In this document: positions 8,470 to 49,733 of the stretch, piece after piece
Numbering within the stretch: the first letter of the stretch is position 1
How the letters are laid out: each line of letters begins with the position of its first letter
Assembly (NCBI GenBank): GCA_051362555.1
Contig: CM120646.1
Span: forward strand, 7,564,001-7,628,000
From: Lingula anatina
Lineage: Eukaryota; Animalia; Brachiopoda
Reading direction: 5' to 3'
DNA: 64,000 nucleotides
Made by a program: the position numbers and the translations under genes
Notes under the pieces: generated by a model
The model's input: only the letters and a program-made list of their open reading frames with translations
Told to the model about the DNA's origin: nothing
Databases searched by the model: none

Positions 8470-8553
8470 ATGCCTGTCTGTCTGCTAGTTGTTCAGCATG
8501 TGTGTCTGCCTGTCTGTCTTTTCGTCCGTTTGTCTGCCTGTCTTACTTTGTGA

Positions 8554-8588
<35 letters not shown>

Positions 8589-9320
8589 TGTCTGTCATCC
8601 TGTCTGCTTGCTTATGTGTCCGCCTGTCTCTGTATCTGCATGCTTGCCTGTTGATCTGCAAGCGTTTCTGGCTGTGTATCTGTCTGCTATACGGTCTGCC
8701 TGCCTGTCTGCCTAACTATGTGTCTGCCTGTCTGTCTGCCTAACTATGTGTCTGCCTGCCTGTCTGCCTATCTATGTGTCTGCCTGCCTGTCTGCCTAAC
8801 TATGTGTCTGCCTGCCTGTCTGCCTATCTATGTGTCTGCCTGCCTGTCTGCCTATCTATGTGTCTGCCTGCCTGTCTGCCTATCTATGTGTATGCCTGCC
8901 TGTCTGTCTATCTATGTGTCTGCCTGCCTGTCTGTCTGTCTAACTATGTGTCTGCCTGCCTGTCTGCCTATCTATGTGTCTGCCTGCCTGTCTGCCTATC
9001 TATGTGTCTGCCTGCCTGTCTGTCTATCTATGTGTCTGCCTGCCTGTCTGTCTGTCTAACTATGTGTCTGCCTGCCTGTCTGCCTATCTATGTGTCTGCC
9101 TGCCTGTCTGCCTATCTATGTGTCTGCCTGCCTGTCTGCGTGTTTTCCTGTGAGCGTCTGTGTGTATGCATGCCTGTTTGCTTGCGGTCCGTCTGCCTGT
9201 GGGTCTGCCCACAGGTATGTCTGCCTGTGGGTCTGCCTACGGGTATGTCTACCTGTGGGTCTGCCTACGGGTCTGTCTGCCTGTGGGTCTGCCTACGGGT
9301 CTGTCTGCTTCTCTGCCTGT
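8470..9320. repeat. Compound (TGTC/TGCC)n microsatellite with a 28-bp minisatellite period and a (TG)n tract
   Basis: TATGTGTCTGCCTGCCTGTCTGCCTA(TC/AC) is repeated through ~8715-9140, followed by GTCTGCCTGTGGGTCTGCCTACGG units. Confidence 0.95.
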
Positions 9321-9506
9321 TCATGTATTTCATCTTTGCTTATTTGTTTTACTACCTGTTCACCTTGCTTCTATTTTTCAAACCGATTTTCCTTTCTACT
9401 CCCACGTTAGACGTTTTAATTTCAACTTCCGGGGTATTTTTATGCTCGCGTCATATCCCGTATAGGCCTTCATATTAATTGATTATAGAAGCTTAAACCT
9501 AAGAAC

Positions 9507-9673
9507 ACGCCCCAGCAAATTAACAACGCAGGGATCATCCCGAGGCTACCTCAGCTGTATTTAAATGGCGATCAGCGTTCGATTCTTTCACTTAAACTTA
9601 AGCCAGCATAGCCGACTCTAGACGCTGGAGAAGTAGTGCCGCCCAGCCCAGCTAACTCAGAGTACAAGTAAGT
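9507..9673 (+). promoter_or_regulatory. Candidate NPF core promoter and non-coding first exon (~9590-9667)
   Basis: TATTTAAA at 9558-9565, Inr-like TCACTT with its A at 9590 (32 nt downstream of the TATA start), locally GC-richer sequence and a consensus donor AA|GTAAGT at 9668. The NPF ATG exon begins with a splice acceptor (20615-16), so an upstream exon is expected. Linking the two is inference. Confidence 0.5.
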
Positions 9674-17770: not shown

Positions 17771-20634
17771 ACACGTGGCTTTTCATGCACGTGACGGTGC
17801 TACTTGTGTGTAAATTAGGGAACATTTGTGGTTATCTTCCTCTGTATTGGACACTGTTTTTCACATAAGTGCATCAGATTTGAGGGGCTACATGTTATTA
17901 ATTTGAATGAATGGTTTAAATATGACCTTCACCGGTATTTTGTAAGGCAATAAATAAATTAACATAGTTTCATTGTACCTATTGCGCCATTCAACAAACT
18001 GAAATAAACGATTCTGGAACCGGAAGAGTGGGTCTAAGTTTACAAAAGTCCTGTGACATGGCTGAAACAGTCTTATATATACTACGCTGAAACAATAAAA
18101 AGTCCAGCAAATATGCTTTTCAGTGCGGCTTACACCAGATAAAAATATGCCTGAATTACGGTCTTTGGCCCTGGCTAACACTGGGTTGTAGGCGTTCTTA
18201 CCTACCTGGAGGGGGGGAGGGGGGGAGAGGGGGAGATACAGCCCAGCTGTCGCATGAAGAGCTGAAAGCTAGGGCTGAAAGCTAAAATTCGAACAATATC
18301 TTGCATTGCCAGACCAAGTGTTTTGCCCTGATTGCGTCAACCCCTAAACCTTAAGAGTAAAGCGAAAAGGCAGCAGGTGCAGTTTATGAAGACTGGCGTT
18401 TCGCTCGTCATTGTCGAATCTATGTCCACTTGCGGTTGCTCTGACCATAAAGCCATTCGATCGGCATACGCCACTTTCTTGCTAAATAATGCATCATTTT
18501 TTTTTGTTCCCATCAAAGAAACGAGGCACAACTGCTTCTTAGGACTACAGTGGTGAGTAAAATTCGTCTTTTTTTTACCAGTTAAATTCAGCAAGCTTAG
18601 GGAAAAATAGAATTGTTGGCCAATAAACAAAATACCTTTTGACGACATTTTTCTTATCTGTTTCCCGGCATGGACAACGACGATGGTGTTAATTTTGCCA
18701 ATAATGAAACGAGTCTGGCCATAGACATCCCAGCAATGCAGGACTCAATAATAGTATAGACAAAAATGATCTCTAAGATGGGTCCCCGGGCTCGTTAAAC
18801 AATAGCTCCCTTTTAACCGATACGAGTGAATACTTTTCAGCATATTCAGAGCTAAAAGATAACACGGGACAAGAGGTTAAATTGTACACTGTATGCGTAT
18901 GAATGATAGACAGGTTTAATTATCTACCACCTATATAACGAAATAGACAAGTGCATTTACGCTAACAGATAAAGCGCGTCATCATAGAATCAGAACTACC
19001 AGATTGTCAGTGGTTGAAATGGCTTGACCTTCAACAAAGGAAGACCTCGCGGGGCTGTGGGTGTGAATTTCAAGAAATACAAATGACTTTCTTTGGAAAT
19101 GAAAAAAAAAAAGGATGGGTCCTTTATGAGTAAGGGAGTTTAGATGAAATCTAGGTGATATCTTATTAAGAAATGTTAGGTGTCACGTTTGCATCTTGCT
19201 TTTTTTTTTTGCATTTCTTACTGATACTTTACCTATTTAAATGAAACGTTTTATTGTTAAAGAAAACGTTGCATATAATACTGACTTGCACTCGGTATCA
19301 TGCACGCTTACAACAGAGTGCACTGAATGAGTAACAGTTCACCTTGCAAATCTTAACAAAACAAAAAACAAAGAACATAGCAAATTTTATATGAGATTTG
19401 TCATGCAACGCACCTAGGGTGTGTCAAAAATGAAATGAATACGAAAATAAGTCGCGATAGACTTCACAAGTAAACACAGTCAGCTTTCAAGGAACTGAAT
19501 TGATAAAAAACAGACCTGGAGCAAATCGGTGCCTTACTCACAGATGTAAGAGGGGGATCAGAATAGAAAATGTATTCAAGTCTTGAAACGTGTCAGTGAA
19601 AATGTAGACGGGAGTGGGGTATAAAAGTGTCAAATAATGGACAAACTGTCATTAGATGTTCTATTTATGCTTAAATGAACTGTGCGCGCAGCATAAGGGA
19701 CAGCATATGTAAGTCGTTCAAGAATTCAAAAGAAAACACCACCAGAACTTTAACTGCAGCCGTGAATCCATCCAGATTAAAAAAGTCTACCTCATTCAAT
19801 CACTCTTGATCAGTAATGAATTGTTATATCTTCTATGGTATCCGTGATATTTGTTGTCTTCTACGTTTGCTCGTTTCCAAATGAAGCCTTACATCCAAAG
19901 GATGCTCCCAGATATCGACTTCGACTGAAATGCTCGAAACTTGCCCGGATATTATCTGTTGTAATTTAATAGTAAGTTTAGGAGAACTGTGTCCAAGATT
20001 GATTTTATAATTTATAGTGGTGTATGTGAAAATCTATGTCCACGGTTGTCTGACGATTAGAGCTTAAGGACTTATTCAGGTTCGAAATTAGACTACGACA
20101 TGACCCATACACGTATGAGTTTTCGTAGTAATCTCGTTATTGCACTTTGACGAACGTTTGCAATGCTTATAATAGTATTGTGCCAACTGGCCATTGCGGT
20201 ATCTATCTGTAAATAGATAAATCATTATCCCTTTTACGGAGTAGTTTACCGACGTATTCAGTTTCATAATCATTTCAGCAGCGTTATACGAGTAGGCGCA
20301 TGTGACTGAGAAACTCAAATTACCGCACAGTAATGGCTTACACAATTAATTGGCCTTCCCTTTTCGTGACTGGCAAGCGGATCATGGAAAGTCTGGGAGA
20401 TTCTTTCAGCACACTGCCTTCTTTGCTTAATTAGGAAACGTCACATCAAACGCACCCAATCATGCCGGGCGTCATTTTCCTAGGCGCTCCCTTTCGATGA
20501 CGCCATACGCTCTGAGCTAATCACAACGCAGCATCTGTGCGACGTCCTCCGCGAGATCTGTACTTAGTAAAGCGAGACTAAAGAACATTTACAGAACTTG
20601 TCGTGATTTCTTTCAGAACAGACTTTATACCAAG

Positions 20635-20846
20635 ATGCGCTCCATCAACACCAATCCCAGCAGCAGTAAGCTTACCCTAAGCTGTATCGCCATAGCTTTG
20701 ATAATCCTAACTCAGGTCCTTGCACCTTGCTTCGCGCACCAACTGACAAAACCGCCAACCAGGCCGAGCTCGTTTAAGAATAAAGCAGAACTTACAGAAT
20801 ACCTAAGGAGGTTAAACGCATACTACGACGTTGTTGGTCGACCAAG
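20635..20846 (+). CDS. NPF: NPF coding exon 1 (signal peptide and most of mature NPF)
   Basis: Matches ORF 20635..20850. Ends CGA CCA AG|gtaagt. Confidence 0.95.
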
Positions 20847-22713
20847 GTAAGTGAATACGAGTGTGCCACAATTTTATGTGTCAAATAACTGACTCAAAGG
20901 CACAAAATAACCTTAACATTTTCCAGAGATGTATTCCATGCATTATATTTATCAACTATTTATATTATATCCAAAACCGTTGAAAGAATTACAATCCATA
21001 AACGCGTGTTTGAGTTCTAAGTCTTTTTTGGTTTTGTTTTACATTAGAAATAGAGATTGAGACTGTTGCAGTTCATTTTTGACGTTGGAAATAAGAAGTT
21101 TAAAACTCGAAAGCGGGATTAACCGATTGAAATATTATTCAAGGTTTTGGATTGGATATACATAAGTGATAAGGGGGAAACTGTCGAAAAATCCAGGGAA
21201 AATTCATTTATTTACATAAAGGTCTATCGTGCATCGTATGCCTTAAAAGTAGGGTTCTCGTTAGTAATCGTCGTCAGTAATCAGTAAACACAGGTGCCAG
21301 TAGTTTGCGTTATTAATTTAGAAAACTACCCAAAAGCTAACGTTAACCATAAGGGCTATGGAAAGTTGAAGATTTCTTGATAGATGACAACACGATACAA
21401 GTTTTGTTCGGAAGCCCACAACATTTTAGTTTTGTGCTTGGCTCTTGAGATAACGACACGCAAGTTATATTATTATACACCAGTTATATTTTACAAGGGA
21501 ATAATCATACTGAAATTTTGGAGTGAACAATGTTACAGTCGGTAAGCAATACTTAACGTAACATACAGACTATTGACTATGTTTCCCCGAACTGAATAGG
21601 GCGACTTGAAGCAGATTACTACCATGGCCCATAGGAGCCTACGCGTGCGTCTTAACATACAAAGAAAACATGCACCGCGTCTATATCGTATGTTATCAAG
21701 CCCTATAGCAGCGGAACTGACACGGCCTATGCCACGTCCGTCCTTTACTACAGAGCTTCGAGACCCGAAAATGACATGACTGAGTGTGTTTCGCCACATG
21801 CTGAACTGCATAGATGCGAGAATCACACAACCCATGTCGCGTTCGTCTCTTTGAGCTTGAAATGGCTATATTATAAAGCTCGAAATTCACATGGTCATGT
21901 CATGGTCATTCACTAAGGCCCATAGATGCGAAATTGACCAGAACCACGCTGCATTTGTCTTATATTGTGCATCTTATAAAACACGTAATTGACATATAGT
22001 CATGCTTATTTCATAACTTCCTGGCTCCCTTAAATGCAAGATTGCATGACTTTTATAACATAGCCATTTGAAGCTCAAAGATTCACAGTAAGAGACGAAC
22101 GCGACATGGGTCGTGTCTATCTCGCATCTATGGAGTTCAGTAAGTGGCGAAACAGACTCGGTCATGTCATTTTTGGGGCTCAAAGCTCTGAAGTAAAAGA
22201 CGAATGCGGTATGGGCCTTGTCAATTCCGCTGTTATAGGACTTAATAACATACGAAATAGACACGGTGCATGTCGTTTTCGCATGTAAAAGGGAGTCTAA
22301 AAGACGCACGCGTAGGCTCCTATGGGCCATGGTAGATTACCCGACCAAACACGCTGCTGCTGTATACCTATAGGCGAACCGCAAGTGTTCTGGCAAACTA
22401 CAACAGATACAGGCCAAATGTGGCTTGGGTTAAATAAGCTGAAACACATTTCCCGTGTCGAATTCAACAATTACATTACTGATGTATGTAAAAACACTTG
22501 TCAAAACACGTGTAATTAAGTAGCGATACCTGTTCTTAAATTACGTTTTTCACTTTCCTTAATCGTTTTCTTTTTTTTTCTTTTTTTTCTCACTTTTTCC
22601 ACAATATGCCTCTAATCAGCAGAAATAAGACTCGAACCAAATACTGTAAAGACCTGCAGATTATTTGTAGCCAACGTGTTGTAAACTGCCTTTTGTTTAA
22701 TCCTGTCGTACGA

Positions 22714-22744
<31 letters not shown>

Positions 22745-24055
22745 CTTGCCATAGAGAGGTTCTAGATTTAACAAATAAGCCGCCGAAGTACATACATGTC
22801 TGCCTTTGATCGTCACCTTTGAAAATGCCTATGTTTGACAACAGATAGTGATAAATTTATTAATCGCCAACGAAAAACTTGAAGTCTCTTCAGTTTTTTT
22901 TTTTCATTTTCGAGTACTCTGGGGAGCATGTAATCTAACCTTAACAATGTAACCATCAGTTTAGCTTGAGATTTTGTCTAATTTTAGGCGCAGATGAAAG
23001 AAACAATGATATATAGACAGGAGACCAAAATGACCAAGTCTATGTCAATTTGCCTAGGATCTATTCCATATGGCATCAATGACGGTCATAGATTGTATTT
23101 AAAGAATCAATTGCAAGGAGTTGAATGGGTGCATCCAATTACCTCTATGACAAATGAAAAGTACATTTGTATAAATGGCCATTAATTCTAAACACTGATT
23201 CCATGTTCTGAGTAGAAGAATTATGTTGCAATACGCTCCATTTTTTATAGTCGGGGGTTTCCGGGTTAAGGCCGTCAAGCACAGGCTTATCGCCGCCTGT
23301 CCCCATTAAGATAATGCCTCATAAACTAGCTACCGCTTAATCTTATATTGTTTAATAACAATGTGATTGATGTAACTGATACCCCTGTCTGTATATGCCT
23401 TTAGCAGTGAATGGCGGATAACGAGATAGACGGCAATATGTGGACACGTCCTCGTTCTGTCTCGGAACTGCTCCAACTGATAAAGCGTGTTGTACGTGTC
23501 CCGCATTTTCGAAATTATGACTTGCTCTGGCTGAAGTAAGCATTCTTTGGCACGTATTCCGACTTCTGTAAAAGTTAAGGTTGGCTGCTTTATGTAAAAA
23601 ATGTCAAATCTGCCTCGTTTTAATGTGCGTTTATTTTTTTATAATTATCTAATTAATTTAATTAGTTATGCTTGGAAAAAGTGCGTTTTCAAAATACGCC
23701 TTTCCTATCCCGCAAGAAAATGCAGTAGTATCGAAGTAGCAAAGAAGCATTAACGCAGTAGTGGTGTGGAGCATATTTGCAGTAGCAATGCAGTATAGCC
23801 TACTGCAATTCTACTTCAAAAACTACATAGGGTTGTACATAGGAGGAGCATTAATGCAGTAGATTAGCAGCATGATAGAAGCATGTTTCAAATATGCTAA
23901 TTAGCTCCCACATCGAAGCAGATTTGAAGCATGTTTGCAGTATGATTGCAGTAGTCTACTGCGCTGGAGTATCTACTTCGTTTTCGTGCGGGATGTCTCA
24001 CCTACGTGGAACACCGTCGGCTTGCAAATCTGAAAATGTCATTGTCGACATTGTT

Positions 24056-24093
<38 letters not shown>

Positions 24094-26908
24094 GAGATAA
24101 CCAGGCTTCGAGGTTTTTTAAAAAAGGCAAAGATTTGGCAAAAATTTGCACGCTAAAGAACAAGAAACATTTGGGTAAAGGGGATCGTTGACCGTTGCAA
24201 AAATGCAAAATACGATACTGCTTTGTGAAAACACCAGGTAAGAAGAGGATGAAGAAACATCGATATAATTGTAAATGGTGTTCGTCTACGTTTATATATG
24301 ATGGATAGGTTTCTCAACGGCTTTGACTAAGCTATATCTATTTGCTAAATGGAACTTTTTTGTCGAGATTTTCATGATGTGTTTTGGGTGCTTTAAAGGT
24401 GTAACACGCATTGCATGCCGCGAAGAACATCAGTCAACGCACGCGAAAATGACTTGTGTAGAACGAAGGCCAAAGCGTTATATTAATTTATAATTGATGT
24501 GTACTTTAAGCGTTTATTAAGTCAGCAAGCACTGTGCTTGTGGGACTGGTTGGGACAAAGCCCCTGGTTGTGCTTAATCAATACTCTAAAACACGAAACG
24601 CGGTCATTACAAGTTGTTTTAAAGCGGAAAAGATGGAATGGAAGGAATCAATGCGTTTCGATTCCGGATCCCATTATCTGCCAATTATAAACATTGATTT
24701 ACTTCCTGTGTCCAACCACTGCCATGTTTCAAATTTTGGAGGTGCTGGGAGAGTCGCGAGGCGGTGCGGGAACATGTTTTCTTAAATGAATACAAGTTTC
24801 CGAATTCCAGCAAGTGCCCCCCCCCCAACCCCAGTTGCACACTGTTTAAATTCAAATTGGGTGAACAAGATGATTTAAAAAGGTAAACAATATGTAAATT
24901 TATCTGAAAAATAGTGATAACGCTTTCCTTTTATTAATACTTACAAAATATAGATTGAAAATAAAGATTAAAAGGGATTGTTTGTAGATCAAAACGTTAC
25001 AATTTTGCCCAGAGTGATGGTAACCACCGTTTACAGTGAAACGGAAGATTATGTCCACATTATGAAGACTATTAAGGCACAAAGTCAACGTAAACCTTTA
25101 TATGGCAAACTTTTAATATTCCCTGGAAATTCCAACAGTCTCACCTTATACATCAAGTTATAGCAAGAATTCATAAACCCATTTTGGAATTCAAAGTTTG
25201 TAGTCTTGAATCAATATGTTTATATATATATATCTCGTAGTAGAGATAAAGACTTGAAATTCACTCATAAGGGTAACGTTTAGGAGTTTAGAGCCCTTAA
25301 ATAGGTTTATAGATAATAATTTACTCAACGTTTCTCGATATAGCACACGCTGGAGATAAGAGAAAAATGTTGAAATTTACAGGAAAACTGATTTTTCCTA
25401 TTGCCTTTTGGACAGACCCTGTAATTCCCATACCAAGCAACTCTCCAACAAGACTCTTTATAACATTTTTAAGTGAAACAACATCACGTGAAAAAGGCAA
25501 CTTTTTACCCCCTTCAGAATTGATACAAAGAGACCTGCCGTACAGGAAAAACTGTCTAAAAACCGTCAGTGTCTGGTATATATTTCGTATCTCGAGTAAA
25601 ATTGAACTTTAGGACAGATGAACCGATGCAAATGCAAGCTAAATTAACCAATTTCTGAAACTAAACAACAAATTGCTATCCCTTTGTTAGGCAACTACAA
25701 ATTCTGTATTTGATTTACAGACCATTTCCAAGAACATGTACTTCCTTACCTCGCCGAATTCTCCAAGGGAATGTGTCTCTAAAAGAGGCGAATGCTTGCG
25801 TCCTTAGAACGAGTATCTTTTTTTAAATAAATGAACTGAATTGTTGTGAGTTGCACCATCATTTGCGACCTTAAAGCAGGTATATATTTTCCCCGTGTGC
25901 CCATAGTCTGAAGTACAGGAATATAATTAGTCGTGACCTGTCAGATTAACTCAACCATGGCGTGATTTATACAACATATAATCGGCTTCTCTTGGAACAA
26001 GAGGCGCCCAATACCTAATCAGTTTTGTGTTTTTCTCTATAATGAATCCGTGAACAAATAAAATAATTTGCACTGGTATGGGATATATGATAGTTTTATA
26101 TATGTTTTTTTTTTTTTAATGAAAGTATGGAAGTTGAACCGTGATACAAGCTGAAAAGTATACAAAGCAAATAACAAAACAGGCATAAGCATTTCTAATT
26201 TAGGTTTATTATCTAATCTTGCAACAAACAACAGTCTCCACAATTTCAATCTCATCCCGACCATTTTCAGACTACATTTTAAGTCTCATGTAGTTCTTGT
26301 TCACAAAATGGAGTTGGTGTTAGGAATCAAGGCAATGTTTTTTTTTTTCAAAATCAAAAAGGCACAGATATTGGTAACGTTAACTCTTCTCATTTCTTGC
26401 AGCTGCTCACAACCAATTACAGTAAACTTTACAGCTAACACGTACGCTTAGTTAAAGAGACAAATTGTAAATTTTCTGCAGCATATGTGATAGTTTACGC
26501 TACAAAGTGATTCCTTTAACGTTAGTGTTCCCAGATGTCCCGGCCATATGTGTTTTTGTTCGCCAAACCTTCCAAGTGGGGGGATTTAGGGTGGTGTCAG
26601 GGGGGTCCTGACCACCCCTTCGATTTCTGAAAAAAAAATCACACCAATGGTCACTTCTTGAAATGACTAGCTGAATCATAGTTCTAAACCGTACCAATTG
26701 GCACCGTTCGCCCTCTAAAACACCAAATATTTTCATTGGAGGTCGGCTTCGCATCCGCGGACCCCCCTTCAAATAATCCTTGATCCGCCCCTGCACCCGT
26801 ATTGTAGGTGATTAAATATACATGTACTCTATTAATCTATCGTCGTGCAGGTTTCGAAATAAAGCAATACACTGTCTGGAAAAAGGTTTAAAAACAAGGA
26901 CATGCTTG

Positions 26909-26942
<34 letters not shown>

Positions 26943-29728
26943 ACGGGCTCCCATAATTTAATGTGATGTGACAATTAACTCAACAACAGAAAACGTATGC
27001 CTGTTAAGTGTCGGATCTTTGATTTAGTATTAATATTGAAATGTACGATGATGACTGAAAACACATTATTGTGTAATTTTAGGTTTGGAAAACGTGCAAT
27101 GGGTCCCTCGGAATATGGAGGAGGCCTAGACGACGCTGTAAATAACGTCCGATCATCTGTCATAGACCTGTTAGATTTTAACGGTAAGTATTTCTCACCC
27201 TTGAAAATATCAGATATAGTCAGCAGTGGACTCTTTTACTAGTCTCATTCCATGCGTGTTCACATACGTGTGCGATAACAGATGTGCACGCGTGTGCACT
27301 TTTTGGTCAGGAGAACCACGATCAAACATCCACTGACCTAACTGCCTGAACATGATTGAGAGGGAGACTGTTTCTGGTGACGCGTAATTGTAACTAGGGT
27401 AAAACTTAACTTATTCACGTTAACACATCATATCTTGTTCGCTGATCGTCATTCTTCAGTTTGGTATAACTTTAGTATGTTCGTAGGTTTAATTGCTTTG
27501 TGTCGTAACACCGCATATTAAGGGTTAATTTAAAGGGGTAGATAAGAGAGACACAAATCAAACATGTATCTACCCAAATGAACCCAAATGACCTTGTCAA
27601 ATCATAATTGTAGTGAATTTATTTGTCCTATAAGGGCAGACTTTGAGAATGTATAGAACGAGCTTCAGACGACTGAAAGCCATGAAGAAACACAAAAACC
27701 TTGTCGACGCTTATAATAAGAGTTTTAACTTAACGACGGGAGGATATTCAAAGCAAACAGTTACATGCAATAATTTTAACAAAGTTTCAGCGTTTCACCA
27801 TATGCAGTAATGATAGCATTATAATGGAGGTTATATGATAAAGTCGTCCACACCATGCCTTACGTAATGAAGCAAGACTTTTAAGTCTAGACTCATATGT
27901 ATAGTGTGTTTTAGTTAAAAACACTGGCGGACGTGCGCCGGTCAAAGGGGGGTGACGTCCATGCCCAGCCGTCACTGTCAGTGTGAATCGCATTTCAATT
28001 TAGAGCTTTAAACAGCTGAACTTTTTGCAACAATGGTTAGCTCTTTACCAATTACCTTTGAAGTGGGAAGTCTGGATTGTGGCAACCTGCTATGACGACA
28101 TTTAAAGTGAGAAAAAGAAGAAGAGTAAAAAAAAAAAGCGTCGAATTGGTGTACAATTAACCGCCCTGTCCTTAGCGTTTTATATCCTGAAATTGAGATT
28201 GAAATTAGGATTTTCACCAATCAGGGGTCGTGCAGAACAGAAACGCTTTTGATGTCAAGATAGCCAATATCATTTGCATGATTTGCCACATCCAACCGCG
28301 AAAAAACCATTTGCTTGACTCGGGGGTTATACAGTAGTAAGGCAGTGTCAAGAGGTGAAATTTTATTTGTTTTGATATACTGAGATAGTCAATCAAACTC
28401 TAGCGGAAGAAAGATAATTTGAAATATATTGCCTTTTGGACGTCACCCAATCTCTCCGATATCGGCACGTTGTTAACTCCATTGCTGGCACCAACAAAAT
28501 TGTTTTCTATACCAATTAAGTCGCCTCATCTTTCCCGGAAATCGATTAAAAATCAAGACATTAATTACCTGGGTATTATTCCCATTTTCTGGCAAGTTTC
28601 CGAAGGTAATACCTCAGCACCTGTGCCATAGTTATGGGAACATTTAGTACGAAGAAAGTCGAATACAAATAATTATGAGTGTACATTTTCTTTATATGTG
28701 AAAAAAATGTCAAGTGTCACCTTCCTTTCAGAGTACTTTCATCCAAACGACTTGTAGGCCTATATGGTTGTAAAGATTGGTGTTTCGTTGACAGAGAGTT
28801 GATATTGTTGGAAGTGAAAAAAAAAAGAAAAAAAAAAAAAGAAATAGGAAAAATGAAACGCAGAGAAGTTAATTAAGCAGCCTGGCCGTTAGTCTGTGAA
28901 CCGCAGCTCGTTGACAGCGCTCAAAGTTTTCATTTAATCACAGCCATTTTCGACCTTCTCTGAAGTACGTGTATTTCTGCGAAGCTTGACATGTGCAAAT
29001 TTTCCTCAGAAGATCAGATAGATCATTCACTTCACTGAGGCACATCAGACTGGCCGTAGAGAAAGAATTCAATATCTTTTACTCTGGCGTGGACAAATCC
29101 GGGGCTATATCGACAAAAAGGTGCCTCTGTAACTCGAAAGGAAAACTCCACCGAATTCCAATCCGTTTTGCTGAATAAAATGGGTAGCCAGTGGCTAGCC
29201 ATGTAAAAAGTGTATTAAAACTCAGTAACACAACAGCTTCTGTGGCTAGTTGTATTAAAAATGACAAACCTGAGGAAGATTTTGCAAAAATCTAGTTAAC
29301 ATATTATGCATTTTATAACCGCTGATGCATGGTTCTGTTTCCTCCGTTAAATTAATTGAGAAGAATTAATGAAGGATTGAAAAATATTGATATACTGCGA
29401 CTTCTGAAATGATCCACTGAGATAATCTAAGAAAATTATGTCTCAGATTTCTAAGCACATTCTTGTAATTGTTGTCATTGCTGTAAGATATGAAATTTAC
29501 TCCTCATACCAGTATATTAAAGCGTGTATGGATTCTGTTTTTCGTGGACTTTTTTTAATGATTTTAAAAATCAATTGCCTTTTTCTTCCTAGTCATCCTT
29601 GTCGACATACTCAGTATGAATAAATTCTTGTAATTTTTTTCTTTATAGGCGATGGGAAGCTTTCGTCCGCAGAACTAGGATTGGCATACTACTTGGATGA
29701 AATTGCTCCCCAGAAAAAGAGGCGGTAA
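20635..29728 (+). CDS. NPF: Neuropeptide Y/F (NPF) prepropeptide, 130 aa, 3 coding exons
   Basis: Exons: 20635-20846 (acceptor tttcag at 20611-20616, donor AG|gtaagt), 27083-27183 (ttttag|...AACG|gtaagt), 29649-29728 (tttatag|...TAA). Joined protein: MRSINTNPSSSKLTLSCIAIALIILTQVLAPCFA-HQLTKPPTRPSSFKNKAELTEYLRRLNAYYDVVGRPRF-GKR-AMGPSEYGGGLDDAVNNVRSSVIDLLDFNGDGKLSSAELGLAYYLDEIAPQKKRR. It shows a signal peptide, the PPxRP..F...EL..YL..LN.YY...GRPRF family pattern, a GKR amidation/cleavage site, and the phase-2 intron inside the last Arg codon that is diagnostic for NPY/NPF genes. Confidence 0.95.
21620..22334. mobile_element. 715-bp foldback MITE with ~260-bp imperfect TIRs; TAC..GTA termini, 6-bp TSD
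   Basis: Ends TACCATGGCCCATAGGAGCCTACGCGTGCGTCTT and AAGACGCACGCGTAGGCTCCTATGGGCCATGGTA. TSD GATTAC at 21614-21619 and 22335-22340. Located in the NPF intron following coding exon 1. Confidence 0.88.
23709..23992. mobile_element. MITE with CCCGCA..TGCGGG termini, 2-bp TSD (AT), internal GCAGTAG subrepeats (CACTA/EnSpm-like)
   Basis: CCCGCAAGAAAATGCAGTAG pairs with CTACTTCGTTTTCGTGCGGG. AT flanks both ends. Confidence 0.7.
26573..26793 (-). mobile_element. hAT-like MITE, second copy with an internal deletion
   Basis: Reverse complement of 5827-6093; shared blocks include TTTTAGAGGGCGAACGGTGCCA and GACCATTGGTGTGATTTTTTT. Confidence 0.7.
27083..27183 (+). CDS. NPF: NPF coding exon 2 (R-F-G-K-R and first half of the C-terminal flanking peptide)
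   Basis: ag|G TTT GGA AAA CGT completes RPRF-GKR. 101 nt, phase 2 to phase 1, donor gtaagt at 27184. Confidence 0.93.
29649..29728 (+). CDS. NPF: NPF coding exon 3 (GDGKLSSAELGLAYYLDEIAPQKKRR*)
   Basis: Strong polypyrimidine acceptor (tttttttctttatag). Phase-1 compatible. Completes an EF-hand loop across the junction and ends in KKRR-TAA. AATAAA signals follow near 30128, 30570 and 30714. Confidence 0.82.
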
Positions 29729-32700
29729 TGGAGCTGTGCGATATATTTTTTGGTATAGGCGGAGCCACCTGTACAAGACGGTCCTGATCCTGAACTTGTT
29801 GACACTAGTTGTCCATGCAATTCACATCCTTAAAACAGCAGCGATTATGTGACTGAAGGATCATAGTTGAATCTCAGGCATAACACATTATCAACAAATT
29901 CTTAAACACCACCTGCTTTCTCTTAAGCACACTGCCTGTTAAAATAACAACCTTTGGTATGAAAAGATTGATTGATTGTTATTCTGCTCCAGAAAAACCG
30001 TTCCGTTCTTGTAAAAACCTTTGGATAATTCTATTGAACTCTGATCGTTCTTCGATGAAAAAGCGTTCAGAGGACGCTCAGTCTCTCTAAATCAATTAAA
30101 CCTTCTTTTTCGCTCAAAGCCCTCGGAAATAAATGTGGTCAGTGCGTTGCGAAATCGGACTTATCATACGCCGCTTTATAATAATTAGCAGTAGTTATTA
30201 ATGGCCGGAAAAAAAATCTGGCCTGCAACAGGGAAGGATTAAAAATTCGGACAGGCTGAGCGTTCATTGATCGAGGAACTAAATAATACTAGTGAGAGCT
30301 AAAATTGTATTGAGACGGTATTGGATATCTTCAATTCAGAATATATTGGTTCGTTTTTTTTGGCGGTGCGGTTTGTCCATTCTTAATTTACTGGTCAAGG
30401 AGTAAAATTCACACATCTTGGTATATTTATATCTCTATCAAAGTTTCACATCTAAGAGATCCGGAAATGACGGTATTTTGAAAATTCAAATTGATAAGAC
30501 TGTCTCTCTAACAATGTTCTTTCAATAATAATTAATTTAACTTAGCTCTTAATCCAAGGATATCTTTTTGGTATTATTTAATAAATTCAACTCACAAACT
30601 AATGCGCCTGGTGTTGAACAATGAAAGCATGCGTAATATAACAAGCGTATAAGGAATATTTAGTCATCCGTCTTGAATGAACTATTCTCTTTGAATATGA
30701 TGACCCGTGACTGAATAAATTTCAAAACAAATGTACGTAAGTTAACAAACTCATTCAAAATTTGTGTCCCTTTGAAATAAGTATTCCTTTTTATTCGCTG
30801 GATACCATTAGTACATACAAATCAGTCCTCAATCCATATTACTCGAACTATACAATATCTAGAATGAGTTTTGTGGAATATATATATTTTATATTAGATA
30901 ATGCTTGTAAACATTATTTTAATTGAATCTTGAAATAATTGTCCGGTTCCAGAGGGCCGGAGATACCGGTACATGTACACGTAAGCGAGTTCGGTTATCT
31001 GCAGGAAATGGTTTCTTTTTATAAAATCTTTCTCAATTTTCATGTCCAAAATCAAGAGGACAAATGATAATCATAAATTTTGAACTACATGTAGCTGTAT
31101 AGTTATTTAAACTGATACAGCTAATGCAATGTCAAAGTTACCTTTCATTTGGTTTCTTTTTCCTTGAAAGAAGAACATTATGAACTTGAAGGTTATTATT
31201 AATGTGACGGCATGAAAACACATAATAGCTTGGCCTTAACGAGGTTCTTCTATACCAAATCGATAAAAAAGCACGCGAAGAGAATATGATAAAGGTAGAC
31301 ACAGAGCTACACGTAGGACGTACAGGGGTACCAGAGATGCTGAAATCTTTTGAGCCATAGACTACCAAAGCCATTCCAGCATACAATTTTTCTACATTTT
31401 TTGGCTCCTTTACATTATAACATTGCTGGATGCAAGGTTTCAATGATGGTAAAAAAATATAATAGTGAAATTGATAAAATGGATATTAAAAAATCTTTAT
31501 TTTGTCTTGGCATTCCTTCCTCACGGCTTACATCTTCTAAATGTAGATATTTACATACAGTTACTGTCACACGGGCACTCTAAGTATGGCAACTTTAACA
31601 CATCGGACTATTTATTGTTGTGTCCATTGACAAACGCGTTGAGTTACATTTAATATTCACGGTAAAAAAATATATATATATCATTTTTCTTTCCCACGCA
31701 GCGCAACTGATTACTGCTAATTGATTCCGAGTACGTCAAATCCACTTGTAAACCGCCCTCTTAGTTGCAAGGATAAGCAGGGATTGTCTTAGAACTAATC
31801 CGTTCTCGTGGACAACCCGTTCTGACGGATTACTGATGCAGGGGCCGCGGGCCGTGAATAAATCGCTGTCGTTCACTGTTCATGCTGCCTACCTGATTAT
31901 TGTTCTGGTAATTTTCTCAGTTTTTAAATTTAAATCAAAGTTAACTCATATGGTGACTTTGGTCAGTGTTTCTGTCCAAACTAAAATGTCAAATAGATCG
32001 GTTTAGAAATTCTCGTTAAGCTCTTTGACCATGCAGTGAGACTACAGCGCATTTTCATCCCAGAGATGATCTCGGTTCTCAAGTAAAACATATTTTAATT
32101 AGTAAATCAACTGAATATACGACTTCAGCTTTTTATTTTGGACACAACACATTTTTAATTAGAAAAATACACGCGATTAATGGTTTCTCTGTATATTCAG
32201 TGATAAAGATAGGATGGATTAAACGTAAAGCAAATCCGGATTATTTTCGACTTCCAGAAGTGATCTATTTCCCACGATTTGAACGAGGGATTATTAAGGT
32301 AAGCAGTTCGGTATCAATATGAGACGGAATTTAAACCTTGCTGGCTCAAGGTTTACTACAAGGAGTCAATGAGCTTAATATTCGTACTTGTATGCTTTAA
32401 TGTAAATCATGGGAGATGAAATAGCCTTTTAAAAAGGTGCATTGTTCTTCCCGACACGCATGACTGTTAATAGCAACGGCGCTTGCAGAACTACTCCATT
32501 CATTTGCTATTTCTCGGGCACATGCCCCCCCCCCAAATCACTTTTGAAGGAGTACATTTAGTTGGTCCTTTTTCATGTATGATAATAAATATCACTTAAC
32601 CATTTTTCTAAAAACAAAATTCTCCAACTACTTAATTAACGCTTACTTTGATTGAACTTTTAACACAGTACACTTTATCGCTTTGAAATATTAAATACAG

Positions 32701-36517: not shown

Positions 36518-39500
36518 CTACCGATAGTAAAGCAAATCATTTATGGAATCATCTTTGTTCTTGGAGGTCTTCTTTGTCTGTTTCCCATACACAAATTGAT
36601 AATTGTCTTCCAGCTGACTGTGTTTCTCTGCTTCGTCTACGGCATCAGTATCCGTTCCCTTTGAGAAAGAAAAATAAATGGCTAAATATAAATAATACAC
36701 ACCTTTAACAAAACAATTTCTCTTTCTTAACTGCTTGTTTAACAGTTTTCCATTTTGTCTCCAGTGTGACGAGTCAGATTAAGTGTTTTGGTTCAACTAT
36801 TAACTTGCAAGAATATTTAAAATACATAAGAAAGAGTATGAAAAACAGAACGACATGAAACAAACTCAGAAGACTCACAGTGTCAGAAGACATTATCTTA
36901 TATTTTATATTAAAAACATGGTGTCCTGACCTAAATGATGATGGTAATCTTTAATATGGAATCAGAGCACACAATTAAAACAGCATTCATCAATTTATTA
37001 TCTGCATAAAACCATTAATCAACAGGCTCTTCACGCACTGTGCATTCAGATTGCATGTAAATGATAACTAGAGGATCAGAGAGGCGATACCGCCTCCGAA
37101 TATTGTACCACCAGCTGGAGCAAGCGCATTCGTATAGACCCCCACATACACAAAATAAGGGGTGCAGCCACCAGTCTTGTGCTTGACAAGCTGTAAAAAT
37201 GCAATCAACAAGAATTTTCAAAATATGCAAAAAATATATATAACTAAAAATGGTGCAATCAAAGTTAAGTTCATTGTAAGGTAGGTCAAAGGTCAATTTC
37301 AAGGTCACAGTAAATTGCCAGTATATGACTTCCTATCCAACTTCAATAGTAACTATGGACCTATCTCTGCCAGTTTTGGAGATAAAAGGGAAGCAAAATT
37401 TGCAAAGTTCAGTTCATGGTGAAAAGAAGGTCAAAGGTCAATTTCAAGGTCACAGTAAAATTGCCAGTATATGACTTCCTATGCAAGTTCAATAGTAACT
37501 ATGGACCTATCTCTGCCAGTTTTGGAGATAAAAGGGAAGCAAATTTTGCAAAGTTCAGTTCAAGGTGAAAAGTAGGTCAAAGGTCAATTTCAAGGTCACA
37601 GTAAAATTGCCAGTATATGACTTCCTATTCAAGTTCAATAGTAACTATGGACCTATCTCTGCCAGTTTTGGAGATAAAAGGGAAGCAAAATTTGCAAAGT
37701 TCAGTTCATGGTGATAAGTAGGTCAAAGGTCAATTTCAAGGTCACAGTAAGATTGCCAGTATATGACTTCCTATTCAACTTCAATAGTAACTATGGACCT
37801 ATCTCTGCCAGTTTTGGAGATAAAAGGGAAGCAAAATTTGCAAAGTTCAGTTCATGGTGAAAAGTAGGTCAAAGGTCAATTTCAAGGTCACATTTAGATT
37901 GCCAGTATATGACTTCCTATTCAACTTCAATAGTAACTATGGACCTATCTCTGCCAGTTTTGGAGATAAAAGGGAAGCAAAATTTGCAAAGTTCAGTTCA
38001 TGGTGAAAAGAAGGTCAAAGGTCAATTTCAAGGTCACAGTAAAATTGCCAGTATATGACTTCCTATGCAAGTTCAATAGTAACTATGGACCTATCTCTGC
38101 CAGTTTTGGAGATAAAAGGGAAGCAAATTTTGCAAAGTTCAGTTCAAGGTGAAAAGTAGGTCAAAGGTCAATTTCAAGGTCACAGTAAAATTGCCAGTAT
38201 ATGACTTCCTATTCAAGTTCAATAGTAACTATGGACCTATCTCTGCCAGTTTTGGAGATAAAAGGGAAGCAAAATTTGCAAAGTTCAGTTCATGGTGATA
38301 AGTAGGTCAAAGGTCAATTTCAAGGTCACAGTAAGATTGCCAGTATATGACTTCCTATTCAACTTCAATAGTAACTATGGACCTATCTCTGCCAGTTTTG
38401 GAGATAAAAGGGAAGCAAAATTTGCAAAGTTCAGTTCATGGTGAAAAGTAGGTCAAAGGTCAATGTCAAGGTCACAGTAAGATTGCCAGTATATGACTTC
38501 CTATTCAACTTCAATAGTAACTATGGACCTATCTCTGCCAGTTTTGGAGATATAAGGGACTAAATGTTATAATTTTGGAGTTACCATAATGTGCCATAAA
38601 TTTCCTACAGAAAAAATTAATTAAAATAAAGAAAAGGTCATTTTGGTCAAAGTTCTTGAAATGGGAGGTTCTCTGAAGTTGGAGAAGTTTAAATTTGATA
38701 AAATAATGTCATTTTTGACCACAAGTTGTCTGCTTTGCCAAGCATTATGTTTTATTTTTCCGGAGTTCAAAATTTATTATCCATTACCGTACTGCACATT
38801 TTTACGGAAGCCGACTGGTGCCATATGTTGAAAAAAAAAATTATCTCGAAATTTCGAGATAGCATTTTTTTTGTTCAAATTTCAAAATACTATCTCGAAA
38901 TTTCGAGATAAATTTTTTTGCTCAAATATCAAAATGCTATCTCGAAATTTCGAGATAATTTTTTTTTTGTTCAAATTTCAAAATGCTATCTCGAAATTTC
39001 GAGATAAAAATTTTTTTTGTTCAAATTTCAAAATAGTATCTCGAAATTTCGAGATAATTTTTTTTTCTACATATGGCACCAGTCGGCTTCCGTACATTTT
39101 CCTTTCACCACCAATATGTACTTTCTGATACAGCGTAACTCGAAAACCGTATGAAATACAAAAAAACCGAGACCACCTCCAGTGTTGGGCTTTACATGCT
39201 CTACAAAATGCAAAAAAGAATGGGTCTCTAGCATTAACGGTTCCCGAATTAGAGACAGTTTTCAGTTTCGGTATCTTATGGCCGCTACTCCTGTGAAAAT
39301 GCACCGATTGACCCCAAATTCACGGAGATGAAAGATGACCTGAAGGGTAACACTTTCCAATAATATTATTGGTTAAGTCTGTGTGGCGTCTGAATAACAG
39401 GGCAAAAAAATTTTTTTTCGTAAAAAATTTCATTTTTTTGAAAATTTTGACCCATTTGACCTTGAAGTAAAGGTCAAAGGTCAAATCCGAGGGTATATTT

Positions 39501-42500
39501 GAAATCTACACATATGACTTTTGGAAAGCCGTCTATAGAAATTTTTCCCGTAACTCCTTCTGTAGGGTAGATAATTAGCATTTAATTTTGCCATTTTTAG
39601 ACAAGGGTGCATTGCAATGAGTGCCACACCCAGACCCCAATACCGACAAAGCCCAAATTTTACGTGGAACGAGTTGAGATTATAGGTGACCTAAATCCAT
39701 GAGATGGGTACGGGGGCCCTTACCGTCTAGGAGGAGAAGCGGTAACGGTAACATGGCGGCGGAGCCGGCGGAACGGACCGGACGGGACCGAAACCATGTG
39801 TACCGCCAGCGCTAACGCTGGTGGTAAATTTTTTTGTTCAAATTTCAAAATAGTATCTCGAAATTTCGAGATAATTTTTTTTTCTACATATGGCACCAGT
39901 GGGCTTCCGTACATTTTCCTTTCACCACCAATATGTACTTTTTGATACAGCGTAACTCGAAAACCGTATGGAATACAAAAAAACCGAGACCACCTCCAGT
40001 GTTGGGCTTTACATGCTCTACAAAATGCAAAAAAGAATGGGTCTCTAGCATTAACGGTTCCCGAATTAGAGACAGTTTTCAGTTTCGGTATCTTATGGCC
40101 GCTACTCCTGTGAAAATGCACCGATTGACCCCAAATTCACGGAGATGAAAGATGACCTGAAGGGTAACACTTTCCAATAATATTATTGGTTAAGTCTGTG
40201 TGGTGTCTGAATAACAGGGCAAAAAAATTTTTTTTCGTAAAAAATTTCATTTTTTTGAAAATTTTGGCCCATTTGACCTTGAAGTAAAGGTCAAAGGTCA
40301 AATCCGAGGGTATATTTGAAATCTACACATATGACTTTTGGAAAGCCGTCTGTAGAAATTTTTCCCGTAACTCCTTCCGTAGGGTAGATAATTAGCATTT
40401 AATTTTGCCATTTTTGGACAAGGGTGCATTGCAATGAGTGCCACACCCAGACCCCAATACCGACAAAGCCCAAATTTTACGTGGAACGAGTTGAGATTAT
40501 AGGTGACCTAAATCCATGAGATGGGTATGGGGGGCCTTACCGTCTAGGAGGAGAAGCGGTAACGGTAGCCGTCCGGCGGAGCCGGCGGAGCCGGCGGAAC
40601 GATCCGGACGAGACCGAAACCATGTGTACCGCCAGCGCTAACGCTGGTGGTACAATTAAGTAGTAAAATGTGAAAAATCTTCACCTTTTAGTATGCATTT
40701 GGGTCATTGATTTATTTTGAGAAAAAAAAAAACATTAATTTAATCAAATCTTACCGGTTTCTTGTTAAAATCTTTCAGAAAAAAATTAAGCCAAAAGTGT
40801 CAATGGATAAATACGCAGAATAAGGATCTCTGTAATAATAAATTGAGTTTTTAAAAACTAGTGCTGCCATTTCCAATCAAAATTGAGAGGTACACAATTC
40901 AACAAACAAATCAAGACAGTATTCAAAATTCTTATCCCAAATCTATCTTTAGAAAAAATTAAGGTAATACCAAGGGAAAAAACAGTATTTATGTTAGCTT
41001 CTGCTGTTACTGTACTAGGTATAATGAATCATCAGCTTAATTTTGTCTTCAATTTTCTCTGAATACTGAACTTCTAAAATTATTCTTCAGCTTTGTTTTT
41101 CATCCAATTCCCACCTCTAGCCCTGTGTGTAGTTAATATTGCATGAAGACTGACCAAACCAGGTAAGTTAGGGCAAAGAACCGGTGCTCAATGAGGCATT
41201 GAAAAACCAGAAACAGGTAGTAAGTGATCTGTCCTAATAGAGTGACTGATTGTCTTCAGGTCATAGAGGAGACTTAACTTCTCTTCAACACCACAGGCTT
41301 TATGTTGTGTTGTTACAAAATATGGTGAGAGTTTAAAAAAGTCCCACGGAACAAGTTTTAAAATAAAGGCAAGCCTTGATTAAATCCTAAGGGAAAAGAA
41401 TAAAGTAATTGCCCTCTGAGAAGAGTAGTTATCAGTAAGACTCCATTCCCATTAGAGACCAATGGTCTATATGGATCCACCCAAGTTTGCAGGGATTCTC
41501 ACTTAGTGCAAGCTTAAAGATTAACAGGTTTCCCCCTGGCGTTAAGTAGGATACAGAAAAGCTAGTTATTATACAAGTTGGATAGAACCACAAAGAACTT
41601 TGGTGTCTTTAGGGGTGATAAAGCGAAGGATGTCAAATTTTCCAGAAAAAAATAGCTATATACATAAAGGTCTTATGCTGTGTACTTTAAAATCAAACAA
41701 ACTGTATAGTCAAGACAGAGTGCTATAGGACAGAATCGAATCCAGAATAGGGGTTAAGCTTGATAAAGGGGATAACAACTCTTCAAATGAGAATAAAATT
41801 TCCACAATAAATAAATTGCAAACAACACAAACAGGTATAATAAAATTCATCTTATTTTACCACCAAAATGGCAGCAATCGTCATTATTCTGAAATTTGTG
41901 CTTGCCATTGGACCACATGGACCTTCATAGATGGCTACTTTTTGTAGTAACCTCTTACAAAAACCACACTTTAAAAAAATACAATGGATTAACTTTGAAT
42001 GTTGGAATGGATTCATTAACAATTGGAAAGTATGGGAAAATTGTCATTTACCCCAGGAAAGTCAGTTTTATGGAACTTTTTCTACCAAAATAAAGAGTTG
42101 TCATACCTTTAAAGCCCTAGAAGTAAGAAAAAAAAGAAAAAAATCCCACAGCCATAACAGATCAATATCTAGGGTTTAACTCTCTATAAACCTATTGCTG
42201 GAATAAGTCATTTCCACTGTGAAGATACCCTTCATCTACTTACCAATATTGCAATGACCATCTTGTTAATAGCCTTGCTGTCATCATCAGATAACATATG
42301 GATGGAGTCGTCATCTGCATTATAATATCCAGTAGTGATGATCTTCACTTCTATTTTTCTTCCTGAGGATGTAAAATAAGTCACAATGAAATACTGTGGA
42401 CTAATTTAGAATTGCTGCTTTTGGGTGGAGATGCTTTATCCACAAAGTAACTTAAGACGGCAAGCTGATCTTAACTTTAAACCAAAATTAAAGTCAAATC

Positions 42501-44826: not shown

Positions 44827-47800
44827 CCAAAGTTATTGCTAATGCTGCAAAATATTTCTAATGGCACAAGTGCAACCAAATTCTACACCATATTTCATGC
44901 CATACAAAAAGCTGTGTTAAAATACAGAGACATTAATGACCTACCTGTCTCCTCAGGTGGTTGGTCATCCAGTCTTTTTAACAGCTTGGTCAGTGTAGTG
45001 GACAGACTCTGGATGGCAACATCTCTGTCCAAACCCTGGACATCCTCTCCCTCTCCGGCCAGTTCACGCTCAGCCTGGAATGCCAAGTCATTCAAACAAA
45101 ATAAAAACAATTTTTAAAGTGACTTTATTTTATGATGGCGGTGATCAGGTCAGGGCTTGACATTTCTGCTGACATCATCTGAATGGCACAGGTGATTTCT
45201 AGAATTGGGCAACTAGAATTAAAGTCATGTTGAAGACTGGAATGTCTGATGTAAAATGGATTTTAGAAACCCATAAACTACTTGATAATTTTAATCCCTC
45301 CCCTCTCCAAAATTCCTAAAAGTTTGATTTTGGAGTGGGGCAAGTAGATTTTTAGATTTTACTTGCCCAAAAAGGGCAAGTGTCTGAAAATAATTTATGT
45401 CAAGCCTTCCTGATAAGAAAAACAAATAAAACAGCATTGTAATATCAATATAAAGTGAAGCAAACTTTCCACCTGCTGGTCTGTGTATAAATCATAATGT
45501 TACTTCTAATAAAGTTAGGATCAACATAAATCTCTCCCTCCCCCACATTTCATCAGACTGTCAAAAAGAAGCCAGAAATATGATTTCATTTACTAAAAGT
45601 ATTTCATTTTTTTTTTGCACCAGTCATTTGTCCAATGAAAGTATGGGAAATAATTATAACAATAATTATAGCAAACACTGAGACATCTGCACTCATGTTA
45701 CTAGTACACAGATGACACTGTGAAAATAGTGCCTCACAGCTTGAGCCTCTTACCTCATCTACAATATCATTAAATTGGGCTGACATAGCTTTACGAATGT
45801 TTTCTTTTCTATTTGCTACCCCTGCCATATCATCAGCGCCAAGACCAAGATCCTCCAAACCTGGGATTAAAGTAAAACACAACTATGTTTATATCAGATA
45901 TTAATTACTGTTCTCTGAGAAAGAGGACTTTGACAGATATTCTGATATTTCTGCAAAAGGAAGACTGATTTATACCATACAGCATTTCAATTTTGATTAA
46001 AAAAGTGACTGGATTCCTAGTCCAACTTAAGGAGACTATGCCACTTCAGCTATGTCAAATTAAGCTTAAAACAATCGTCATACTTATTTTTACTTCTATA
46101 CAAACAATTTTCAGAGCAGAAGAAGAAATGATGACTGAATGGCATTATTCTAAGCTGTGACTAACCTTTAGTAAACTGCTCCTCTGTGGCATCTGGATCT
46201 TCTTCTTCCTCTTCCACCTCACCCTTTTCACTTTTTCCACCCTTTTTCATATTTTTGTTAGCTTTATTAATAACTTTCATCAAATTTTTGTAAAATTTCT
46301 GGGTCTCCTCGTCCATTTCACCCGAAATGTCATCCTCACTCTCGGAGTTCATATTCTGACCACCAGGTGTCTCTGAAGGCTTCCCTTGCTCTGAACTTGG
46401 TGGAGGTTCTGGAATGTCTTGATCCAAGATTTGAGCATCTGGTCCACTTTGTTTTGATTGCTGACCATCCACAACTGCCTCGTTTCCCTTGCCAATTTCC
46501 TTCTTAAGATCATGATTAATCTGATTATCACTTGTGATTTGTCTTTCTTGATTGTCACTTTCATCTTCCTTTTCCTCATCTTTCACGGGACTATCTACTT
46601 TCTGAGCTTGACCTGCAGTGTCTGCTTTATTCTGAATGCTGAAGTATTCTGATACAAATTGCTGAAAGTCAGCCATATCCTTAATCTCCCTGAGTTCTGG
46701 TACTTGAGAACCTGAAAGATTGGTCAAATAACATTATGTTAGTTATCTATATGTGAAACAAGGGATCCAACAGTATTTCCCCTGCAACGTTTTGTCTCAT
46801 TTAACGTCACTTACGGTTCTCAATCTGTCTAAGAACATAATTTTTTTTTTATTTAATAAAAACTTTCCTTAATCTGTTCTTGGACATTCTGAAGGACTTC
46901 CCCTATACAGTTCTCGACCTGTTACATCATTCATTATAGACCAACATTAGAACTGTATAAAAAATACACCAAATGTTCTAAAATTGACTGAGAATCATAA
47001 GTGAATGTCAAAAGAAACAAATTTTTGCAGGGGTTGATATCAATGCAGGGGGGGGATAGACAATTCACAATGAAGCCCCTTGGCCAACAGCTAATCCTTC
47101 CAGCATTACCGTTAAAGATGCATACTAGTACAAAGTCAATTTTTTGTTACAAAAACCAACCAAATGCCAGCATATAGTTTCAAGTAGTATAACTAAGAGA
47201 AGTACCAAAATGCATTGTTTAATTTTACCAGAAAATGATGTTTGAACGGATTTTTCTGTTGGCATTCTAAGCTGTATGTCAATGGGGCAGGAAAGTAGGT
47301 CACGAAAGTAGGTTAAATTTACAACCAAAAATTTAAAGAAAGGAGCAGTCTAAAGCTCTTTTATGGCTGATCGAGTGATCTATTCAGTTTATCCCTTGGC
47401 ATGTCGAATTTATTTGAGTCATATAAGAATCTAGTAGAAGTGGTATACATGTGTTACTGGGAATCCACACTCCACTGATGCTCGGTTCGTATGTACCTTT
47501 AAGAAAATATTTTACAATTCCATAAAAGTATCATTGAAAAGCAACTTTACCAATGCCAAATTGTTTCTCAAACTTCTTAGTCAATACATCTGTCAAAATT
47601 TTCCTAAGTTTTGGCTGCAGTGTGTTCTGGTCCTCTGTGACAGGGGGTGGGTCTGTCTTCTCTGCATCTTCAGAGGCTAGATATAATAACAAACATTATA
47701 ACTCAATCAATTCCTGCTTTAGAATATAATATTATGTTTTTGTGTTATTATTTATTATCATAAATAAACCATCACGAACACTTGTTTGATAGCCTGCTTT

Positions 47801-49658: not shown

Positions 49659-49733
<75 letters not shown>

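Follow-up and report, generated by a model that had tools for sequence, protein, structure and literature searches.

A neuropeptide F precursor of the brachiopod Lingula anatina carries a lone EF-hand motif in its C-terminal flanking peptide

The DNA analyzed here, hereafter the window, comprises 64,000 nucleotides of Lingula anatina (GCA_051362555.1, contig CM120646.1, positions 7,564,001 to 7,628,000 of the forward strand). On its plus strand lies a gene for a precursor of the neuropeptide Y/neuropeptide F (NPY/NPF) family in which a lone EF-hand loop follows the neuropeptide. An initial reading of the sequence (the original prediction) had proposed such a precursor of 130 residues, and the spliced translation of three coding exons separated by GT..AG introns (20635-20846, 27083-27183 and 29649-29728) is identical to the 130-residue protein of LOC106166893 (XP_013401012.1). 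The gene also has a non-coding exon 1 (9590..9667, start approximate): the 78-letter loose end of a transcript contig (X1) that precedes 20617 includes a 16-base piece with a single match, at 9650-9665, and a GTAAGT donor follows 9667. What had been called coding exons 2 and 3 thus keeps its coordinates and becomes exons 3 and 4 of the gene. Exon 2 (20617..20846, ATG at 20635) encodes the signal peptide and most of the mature NPF, and ends at a phase-2 intron within the last Arg codon of RPRF; this intron (20847-27082), whose joint is seen in four reads and one contig, splits the mature peptide. Exon 3 (27083..27183) contributes the terminal Phe, the GKR amidation and cleavage signal (27087-27095), a linker, the entering helix, loop residues 1-3 and the first base of Gly4. 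A phase-1 GT..AG intron of 2465 bases (27184..29648) interrupts the Gly4 codon, and the coding part of exon 4 (29649..29728) supplies the remainder of the loop, the exiting (F) helix, KKRR (29714-29725) and the stop codon. The 3′ untranslated region (UTR; 29729..30594, end approximate) was delimited from read depth and X1 contigs, with AATAAA at 30128 and 30580.

Several lines of evidence identify the product. Pfam Hormone_3 (PF00159) matches the precursor at 47.7 bits, above the cut-off of 28.7, and the mature portion matches neuropeptide F in PDB entry 1k8v (E 1e-4). A hydrophobicity heuristic predicts a signal peptide at residues 1-34 (20635..20736), with a hydrophobic core at residues 15-25 and small residues at -3/-1. 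Cleavage after residue 34 and at GKR would release a predicted 38-residue peptide (residues 35-72, 20737..27086) ending in RPRF-amide; the RPRF-GKR stretch at residues 69-75 combines the C-terminal RXRF/Y, the Gly and the basic cleavage site. Tyr residues 10 and 17 positions from the C-terminus of the mature peptide are a feature of the NPY/NPF family, and both are present in Lingula NPF. The available portion of PMC7314547 names two introns as typical of NPY/NPF genes, one of phase 2 that interrupts the Arg codon of the final RF and a second within the C-terminal part; RNA joints show that the Lingula gene has both. The supplement of Thiel et al. 2021 (PMC8557429) lists the Lingula sequence as NpY/F, and the main text of that paper contains neither 'EF-hand' nor 'calcium'. 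Used by itself as a query, the NPF exon retrieved only the Lingula protein. Taken together, the window gene encodes a genuine NPY/NPF precursor.

The loop is split by the phase-1 intron at Gly4 and, as originally predicted, is present only after splicing. RNA reads confirmed the joint between 27183 and 29649. Runs X8, X9 and X10, all from one study, contain it in 15, 14 and 3 reads, respectively, and a contig of X1, from another study, has it too. Of six raw-read runs, three show the joint, the remaining three (X2, X5 and X6) having no reads on the exons. An alternative last exon, which would have removed the motif, was rejected: reads at donor 27183 show only the 29649 joint, and no alternative joint, loose end or intronic depth is listed there. 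Compared with the window, the reads show four differences across the final two coding exons, each of them silent (one was checked by hand) and lying outside the EF-hand region, and 35 differences in the 3′ UTR.

The 12-residue loop (residues 102-113; 27174-27183 joined to 29649-29674) matches the PROSITE PS00018 pattern, with ligands at positions 1, 3, 5, 9 and 12, Gly6 and a hydrophobic residue at position 8. The window has 291 acceptor-like sites, of which 29649 alone completes this pattern after donor 27183. Two AlphaFold2 models predict that the flanking peptide region folds as a helix-loop-helix, in line with the two helices originally proposed: a helix at 85/86-101, the loop and a helix at 111/116-123, with a predicted local distance difference test score (pLDDT) of 71-90 over residues 91-120. 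The predicted entering (E) helix, residues 86-101, corresponds to 27126..27173, and helix positions -1, -4, -5, 8, 13 and 17 are hydrophobic. For residues 89-122, the closest structure was PDB 1cta (Z 4.4, root-mean-square deviation 1.6 over 34 residues), a match that is weak on the tool's scale; VIA-align gave no match at Z ≥ 5. The 1cta structure is a 34-residue synthetic homodimer that binds calcium at two sites, and is a fragment of a cytosolic protein, site III of troponin C. Residues 76-130 contain no Cys, and the flanking peptide has a net charge of -7.

We then compared precursors across the family. An amide site was present in 91 of the 133 phmmer hits that formed the first set; in 15 of these 91, PS00018 lies after it, compared with a mean of 0.06 and a maximum of 2 in shuffled sequences. 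When all searches were pooled into a set of 219 precursors, which is biased towards EF-hand hits and rotifers, 61 matched PS00018 (0.13 in shuffles) and 88 matched a relaxed pattern (2.7 in shuffles). The shuffle and acceptor-site counts reject a chance origin of the motif. Several EF-bearing homologs were retrieved through the NPF part alone. Scanning DNA with the NPF end as the sole key yielded 19 loci, with the loop in 14; the other five comprise two cut by the locus end, two mollusc-like loci without the loop and one that is probably unrelated. In metagenome contigs, none of 15 stretches was confirmed as a related locus. Carriers include the rotifers Seison, Didymodactylos, Adineta, Rotaria and Brachionus, and the echiuran annelid Urechis unicinctus (NPF-1). 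For brachiopods, phoronids and nemerteans, counts rest on parts 6, 19, 233, 328 and 330-332 of the PMC8557429 supplement plus term hits; within this material, 3 of 21 NpY/F entries have the loop, namely those of Lingula, Glottidia and Novocrania. By eye, a closely similar loop stands in the same place in Branchiostoma floridae XP_002609542, whose peptide ends TRQRY-GRR.

No second EF-hand loop was found in any of the 219 precursors, unlike the paired type seen in calmodulin, S100 and CREC proteins. The hydrophobic positions at which EF-hands pack in pairs (-1, -4, -5, 8, 13 and 17) are nonetheless kept across EF-bearing precursors. The linker, the tail and the surface positions show wide variation, the linker ranging from 8 to 81 residues. 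Of the 61 EF-bearing precursors, just 8 have a basic pair after the loop, so the proposed KR and KKRR boundaries hold for Lingula and Glottidia and are not general. Among the precursors collected, six (P0003, P0004, P0006, P0009, P0027 and P0064) carry two or three NPF copies in tandem, P0009 combining two copies with an EF-hand, and the NPF precursor P0276 has a degenerate EF-like loop with one extra residue.

Conservation of the ligand positions in orthologs, whose absence had been named as a refutation, was borne out in brachiopods, rotifers, Urechis and Branchiostoma. The ratio of non-synonymous to synonymous differences (pN/pS) was computed on 11 distinct EF loci from the DNA scan that resemble named bdelloid proteins, as pairwise and hence non-independent counts. 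It was 0.09 at ligand codons 1, 3, 5, 9 and 12, compared with 1.08 in the linker, 0.57 at other loop codons and 0.60-0.68 in the helices; the value of 19 at loop positions 6 and 8 is an artefact of a pS near zero. These results indicate that the ligand codons are under purifying selection. Asp1 and Glu12 are invariant in alignment A1; over 71 aligned rows, which were picked for having the loop, Asp1 occurs in all 71 and Glu12 in at least 90%. In the bdelloid-like genes (L001-L019), the family intron in the RF codon is missing and an apparent intron lies a few codons upstream.

NPY's C-flanking peptide tends to be regarded as a leftover, and debate continues over the way in which individual prohormones enter dense-core granules. 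Secretory granules are rich in Ca2+, and lone EF-hands pair. We propose, as an even bet, that the flanking-peptide EF-hand binds Ca2+, pairs precursors and aids their condensing and sorting into dense-core granules. Ca2+ binding by the loop is likely; pairing of the lone EF-hands is reasonably probable; and the chance that the EF-hand acts in packaging or sorting until cleavage, after which the 51-residue acidic peptide is co-released, is just short of even. In this scheme, the EF-hand would bind Ca2+ in the late secretory pathway, each lone EF-hand would be completed by that of a second precursor copy, and pairing would condense or sort the prohormone into dense-core granules before cleavage at the KR, after which the flanking peptide would be co-released. 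Because a single loop is present and its pairing-face hydrophobic residues are kept, a partner outside the molecule is to be expected. The variable linker and tail and the scarcity of closing basic pairs are easier to reconcile with a function within the precursor than with that of a receptor ligand. By analogy, the 1cta match suggests that self-pairing would be feasible and says nothing about function.

We further consider it fairly probable that the EF-hand arose once, before the split of protostomes and deuterostomes, and was repeatedly lost thereafter. The simplest reading of its occurrence in a cephalochordate and in three spiralian phyla, always once per precursor and in the same place, would be an ancestral state with many losses. 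Moreover, nine rotifer-type predictions end abruptly at D-x-N/D-G, the same point at which the unspliced Lingula sequence breaks off, which suggests a shared phase-1 intron in the loop.

A number of observations weigh against this account. All four Pfam EF-hand models that match the Lingula precursor do so under their curated cut-offs (16.3 versus 25.9 bits, E 0.007), so that, of the two scans originally suggested, PROSITE gave a match and Pfam a subthreshold one; EF-hand_1 matched 16 of 19 aligned relatives at E ≤ 0.1, at best 1.4e-6. Foldseek returned no match at E ≤ 0.001, the start of the exiting helix differs between the two AlphaFold2 models (111 versus 116), and the Lingula helices are imperfect, with Arg at -8, Ala at 16 and Asp at 20. 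Among the 88 relaxed matches, 27 fail PS00018, and 9 of the 11 bdelloid-like loci have Lys at loop position 6. The loop is missing from the other 18 brachiopod, phoronid and nemertean entries in the supplement parts covered, including two further Lingula paralogs and all phoronid and nemertean NPY/NPF entries read. By eye, it was not found in the vertebrate, mollusc, arthropod, flatworm and priapulid entries read, and the Branchiostoma carrier is a gene model whose N-terminus looks mispredicted. As most NPY/NPF precursors are without the loop, it must be dispensable for sorting in general. One could view the motif as a structural relic, or as a loop that does not bind Ca2+ in Lingula and is kept for folding or stability only, as its subthreshold Pfam score, the non-canonical position 6 of the bdelloid-like loci and the loss of the loop in most lineages would allow. 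Selection, however, is strongest precisely at the ligand positions, Asp1 and Glu12 are close to constant in the rows chosen for the loop, and every read difference in the last two coding exons is silent; we regard this explanation as very unlikely. As to origin, a tree of the mature peptide needs 11 gains or losses and fits one origin or several; it was built from 67 hand-picked rows of the 219 and 39 columns, and several of its loop-negative rows are truncated gene predictions. Independent gains in several NPY/NPF lineages and in other prohormones, by convergence or repeated exon capture, would account for the patchy distribution of a short motif, for the at least four changes forced by well-supported branches of the tree and for the finding that none of the 14 bdelloid-like loci has an intron within the loop. 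Such gains would nevertheless have had to place a single loop at the same position in all carriers and to produce brachiopod and amphioxus loops that are closely alike by eye, and the rotifer-type break-off points hint, indirectly, at a shared intron. Thus, we hold repeated gain to be somewhat unlikely and prefer a single ancient origin.

Two other roles were considered. After cleavage at KR (and KKRR), the flanking peptide may be a co-released signal or Ca2+ carrier that acts outside the cell, where it would fold on extracellular Ca2+ and bind a receptor or buffer the ion, and its clean basic boundaries in Lingula and Glottidia and its charge of -7 agree with this, as does nucleobindin, which gives rise to nesfatin peptides, one of them with an EF-hand, according to the available part of PMC9004410. 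Yet the linker, tail and surface positions are highly variable, the closing basic pair is rare and there is no amidation signal, which makes this role quite unlikely. Alternatively, the lone EF-hand may pair with a different partner, either an EF-hand protein of the secretory pathway (nucleobindin, CREC family) or the lone EF-hand of another prohormone, for example allatotropin; the outcome would be co-sorting, or a cleavage site whose accessibility is gated by Ca2+. The hydrophobic pairing positions are conserved, the Lingula helices are imperfect for a self-pair, and Lingula allatotropin likewise ends in a lone loop in the supplement part covered; self-pairing would still be simpler for a protein concentrated in granules, and we judge a foreign partner unlikely. 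Self-pairing of the precursor in the granule pathway remains our preferred reading.

Elsewhere in the window, exons of a gene with an MRH domain lie on the minus strand at 45600-51600, in convergent orientation to the NPF gene; their Pfam PRKCSH_1 match is weak (E 7.6e-5), and we take this gene to be OS-9/ERLEC1-like. Also on the minus strand are a weak Pfam TNF match at 36518-36778 (E 0.03), which may be due to chance or an exon, and a 154-residue Cys-containing open frame at 57688-58152 with no Pfam match. A low-complexity tandem repeat (8500-9480) lies just upstream of the first exon, a repeat unit is duplicated at 38800-40150, and intronic repeats at 23700-24000 and 26600-26800 draw reads from elsewhere in the transcriptome.

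Neuropeptide precursors that end in a lone EF-hand are already known as a kind. For the NPY/NPF family, the literature listings and passages covered, in which subscription journals are largely missing, contained no account of one. The novelty originally claimed is narrowed by the lone EF-hands of allatotropin and pleurin precursors and by UniRef, in which rotifer NPF precursors are automatically named 'EF-hand domain-containing protein'. Allatotropin precursors share the layout of Lingula NPF, with one amidated peptide and then a C-terminal lone EF-hand-type loop. In supplement part 233 of PMC8557429, such a loop ends 30 of 43 allatotropin entries by eye, Lingula included, its carriers there being insects, crustaceans, molluscs, annelids, nemerteans, phoronids and Lingula; a table in the available portion of PMC9387463 tags Anopheles allatotropin with the InterPro EF-hand entry IPR018247. 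Atlas feature matches to allatotropin (0.90, with fewer than 150 shared features) serve as a lead only. Allatotropin differs in having an unrelated active peptide and receptor and an extra conserved segment ahead of the loop. In the portions of PMC5818035 and PMC10987541 available, a conserved 'domain' or 'cryptic peptide' common to allatotropin and hemichordate orexin precursors is described with its fold unnamed; it is probably this EF-hand. Bogdanov et al. 1998 (PMID 9622259) reported, by the title of the paper, an EF-hand motif in a neuropeptide precursor of the snail Helix that was later called pleurin. In the supplement material covered, four snail or slug pleurin-type precursors and one nemertean allatostatin-B/MIP precursor end in a lone EF-hand loop, and the loop was not found in the brachiopod and nemertean pleurins seen. 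Gastropod pleurin carries multi-copy PRX-amide peptides, unlike Lingula NPF.

These parallels raise a broader possibility, which we consider doubtful: that bilaterian prohormones ancestrally possessed a packaging module, so far overlooked, in the form of a lone C-terminal EF-hand. It would have been present in NPY/NPF of the protostome-deuterostome ancestor; modules of this kind would include the 'cryptic peptide' of allatotropin/orexin as well as the tails of pleurin and MIP; Ca2+-driven homo- or hetero-pairing would condense or co-sort prohormones; and the vertebrate C-flanking peptide would be an eroded remnant. If so, the 'cryptic peptide' would gain an identity. If a module of calcium-binding type is conserved from rotifers to amphioxus, the ancestral architecture of NPY/NPF would have to be rewritten, and an element of 30-50 residues, mutable at two positions, would allow a direct test of calcium-dependent sorting. 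Among systems further removed, nucleobindin/nesfatin (NUCB1/2) is likewise a secretory precursor with dibasic sites and calcium-binding EF-hand motifs (PMC9004410, available part); it differs in being large and multidomain, with a leucine zipper, and is not a relative of NPY. Neurophysins of the vasopressin/oxytocin and NG-peptide precursors have a cysteine-rich fold and no sequence relation to the flanking peptide. The 1cta peptide illustrates that an EF-hand of 34 residues is able to form a two-site Ca2+ homodimer, although it is synthetic and a weak match by Z. Within its own family, the Lingula prepropeptide shares the signal peptide, the one PP-fold peptide, the RPRF-GKR end and both introns, and differs from the vertebrate, mollusc, arthropod and flatworm entries read by the EF-hand in its flanking peptide.

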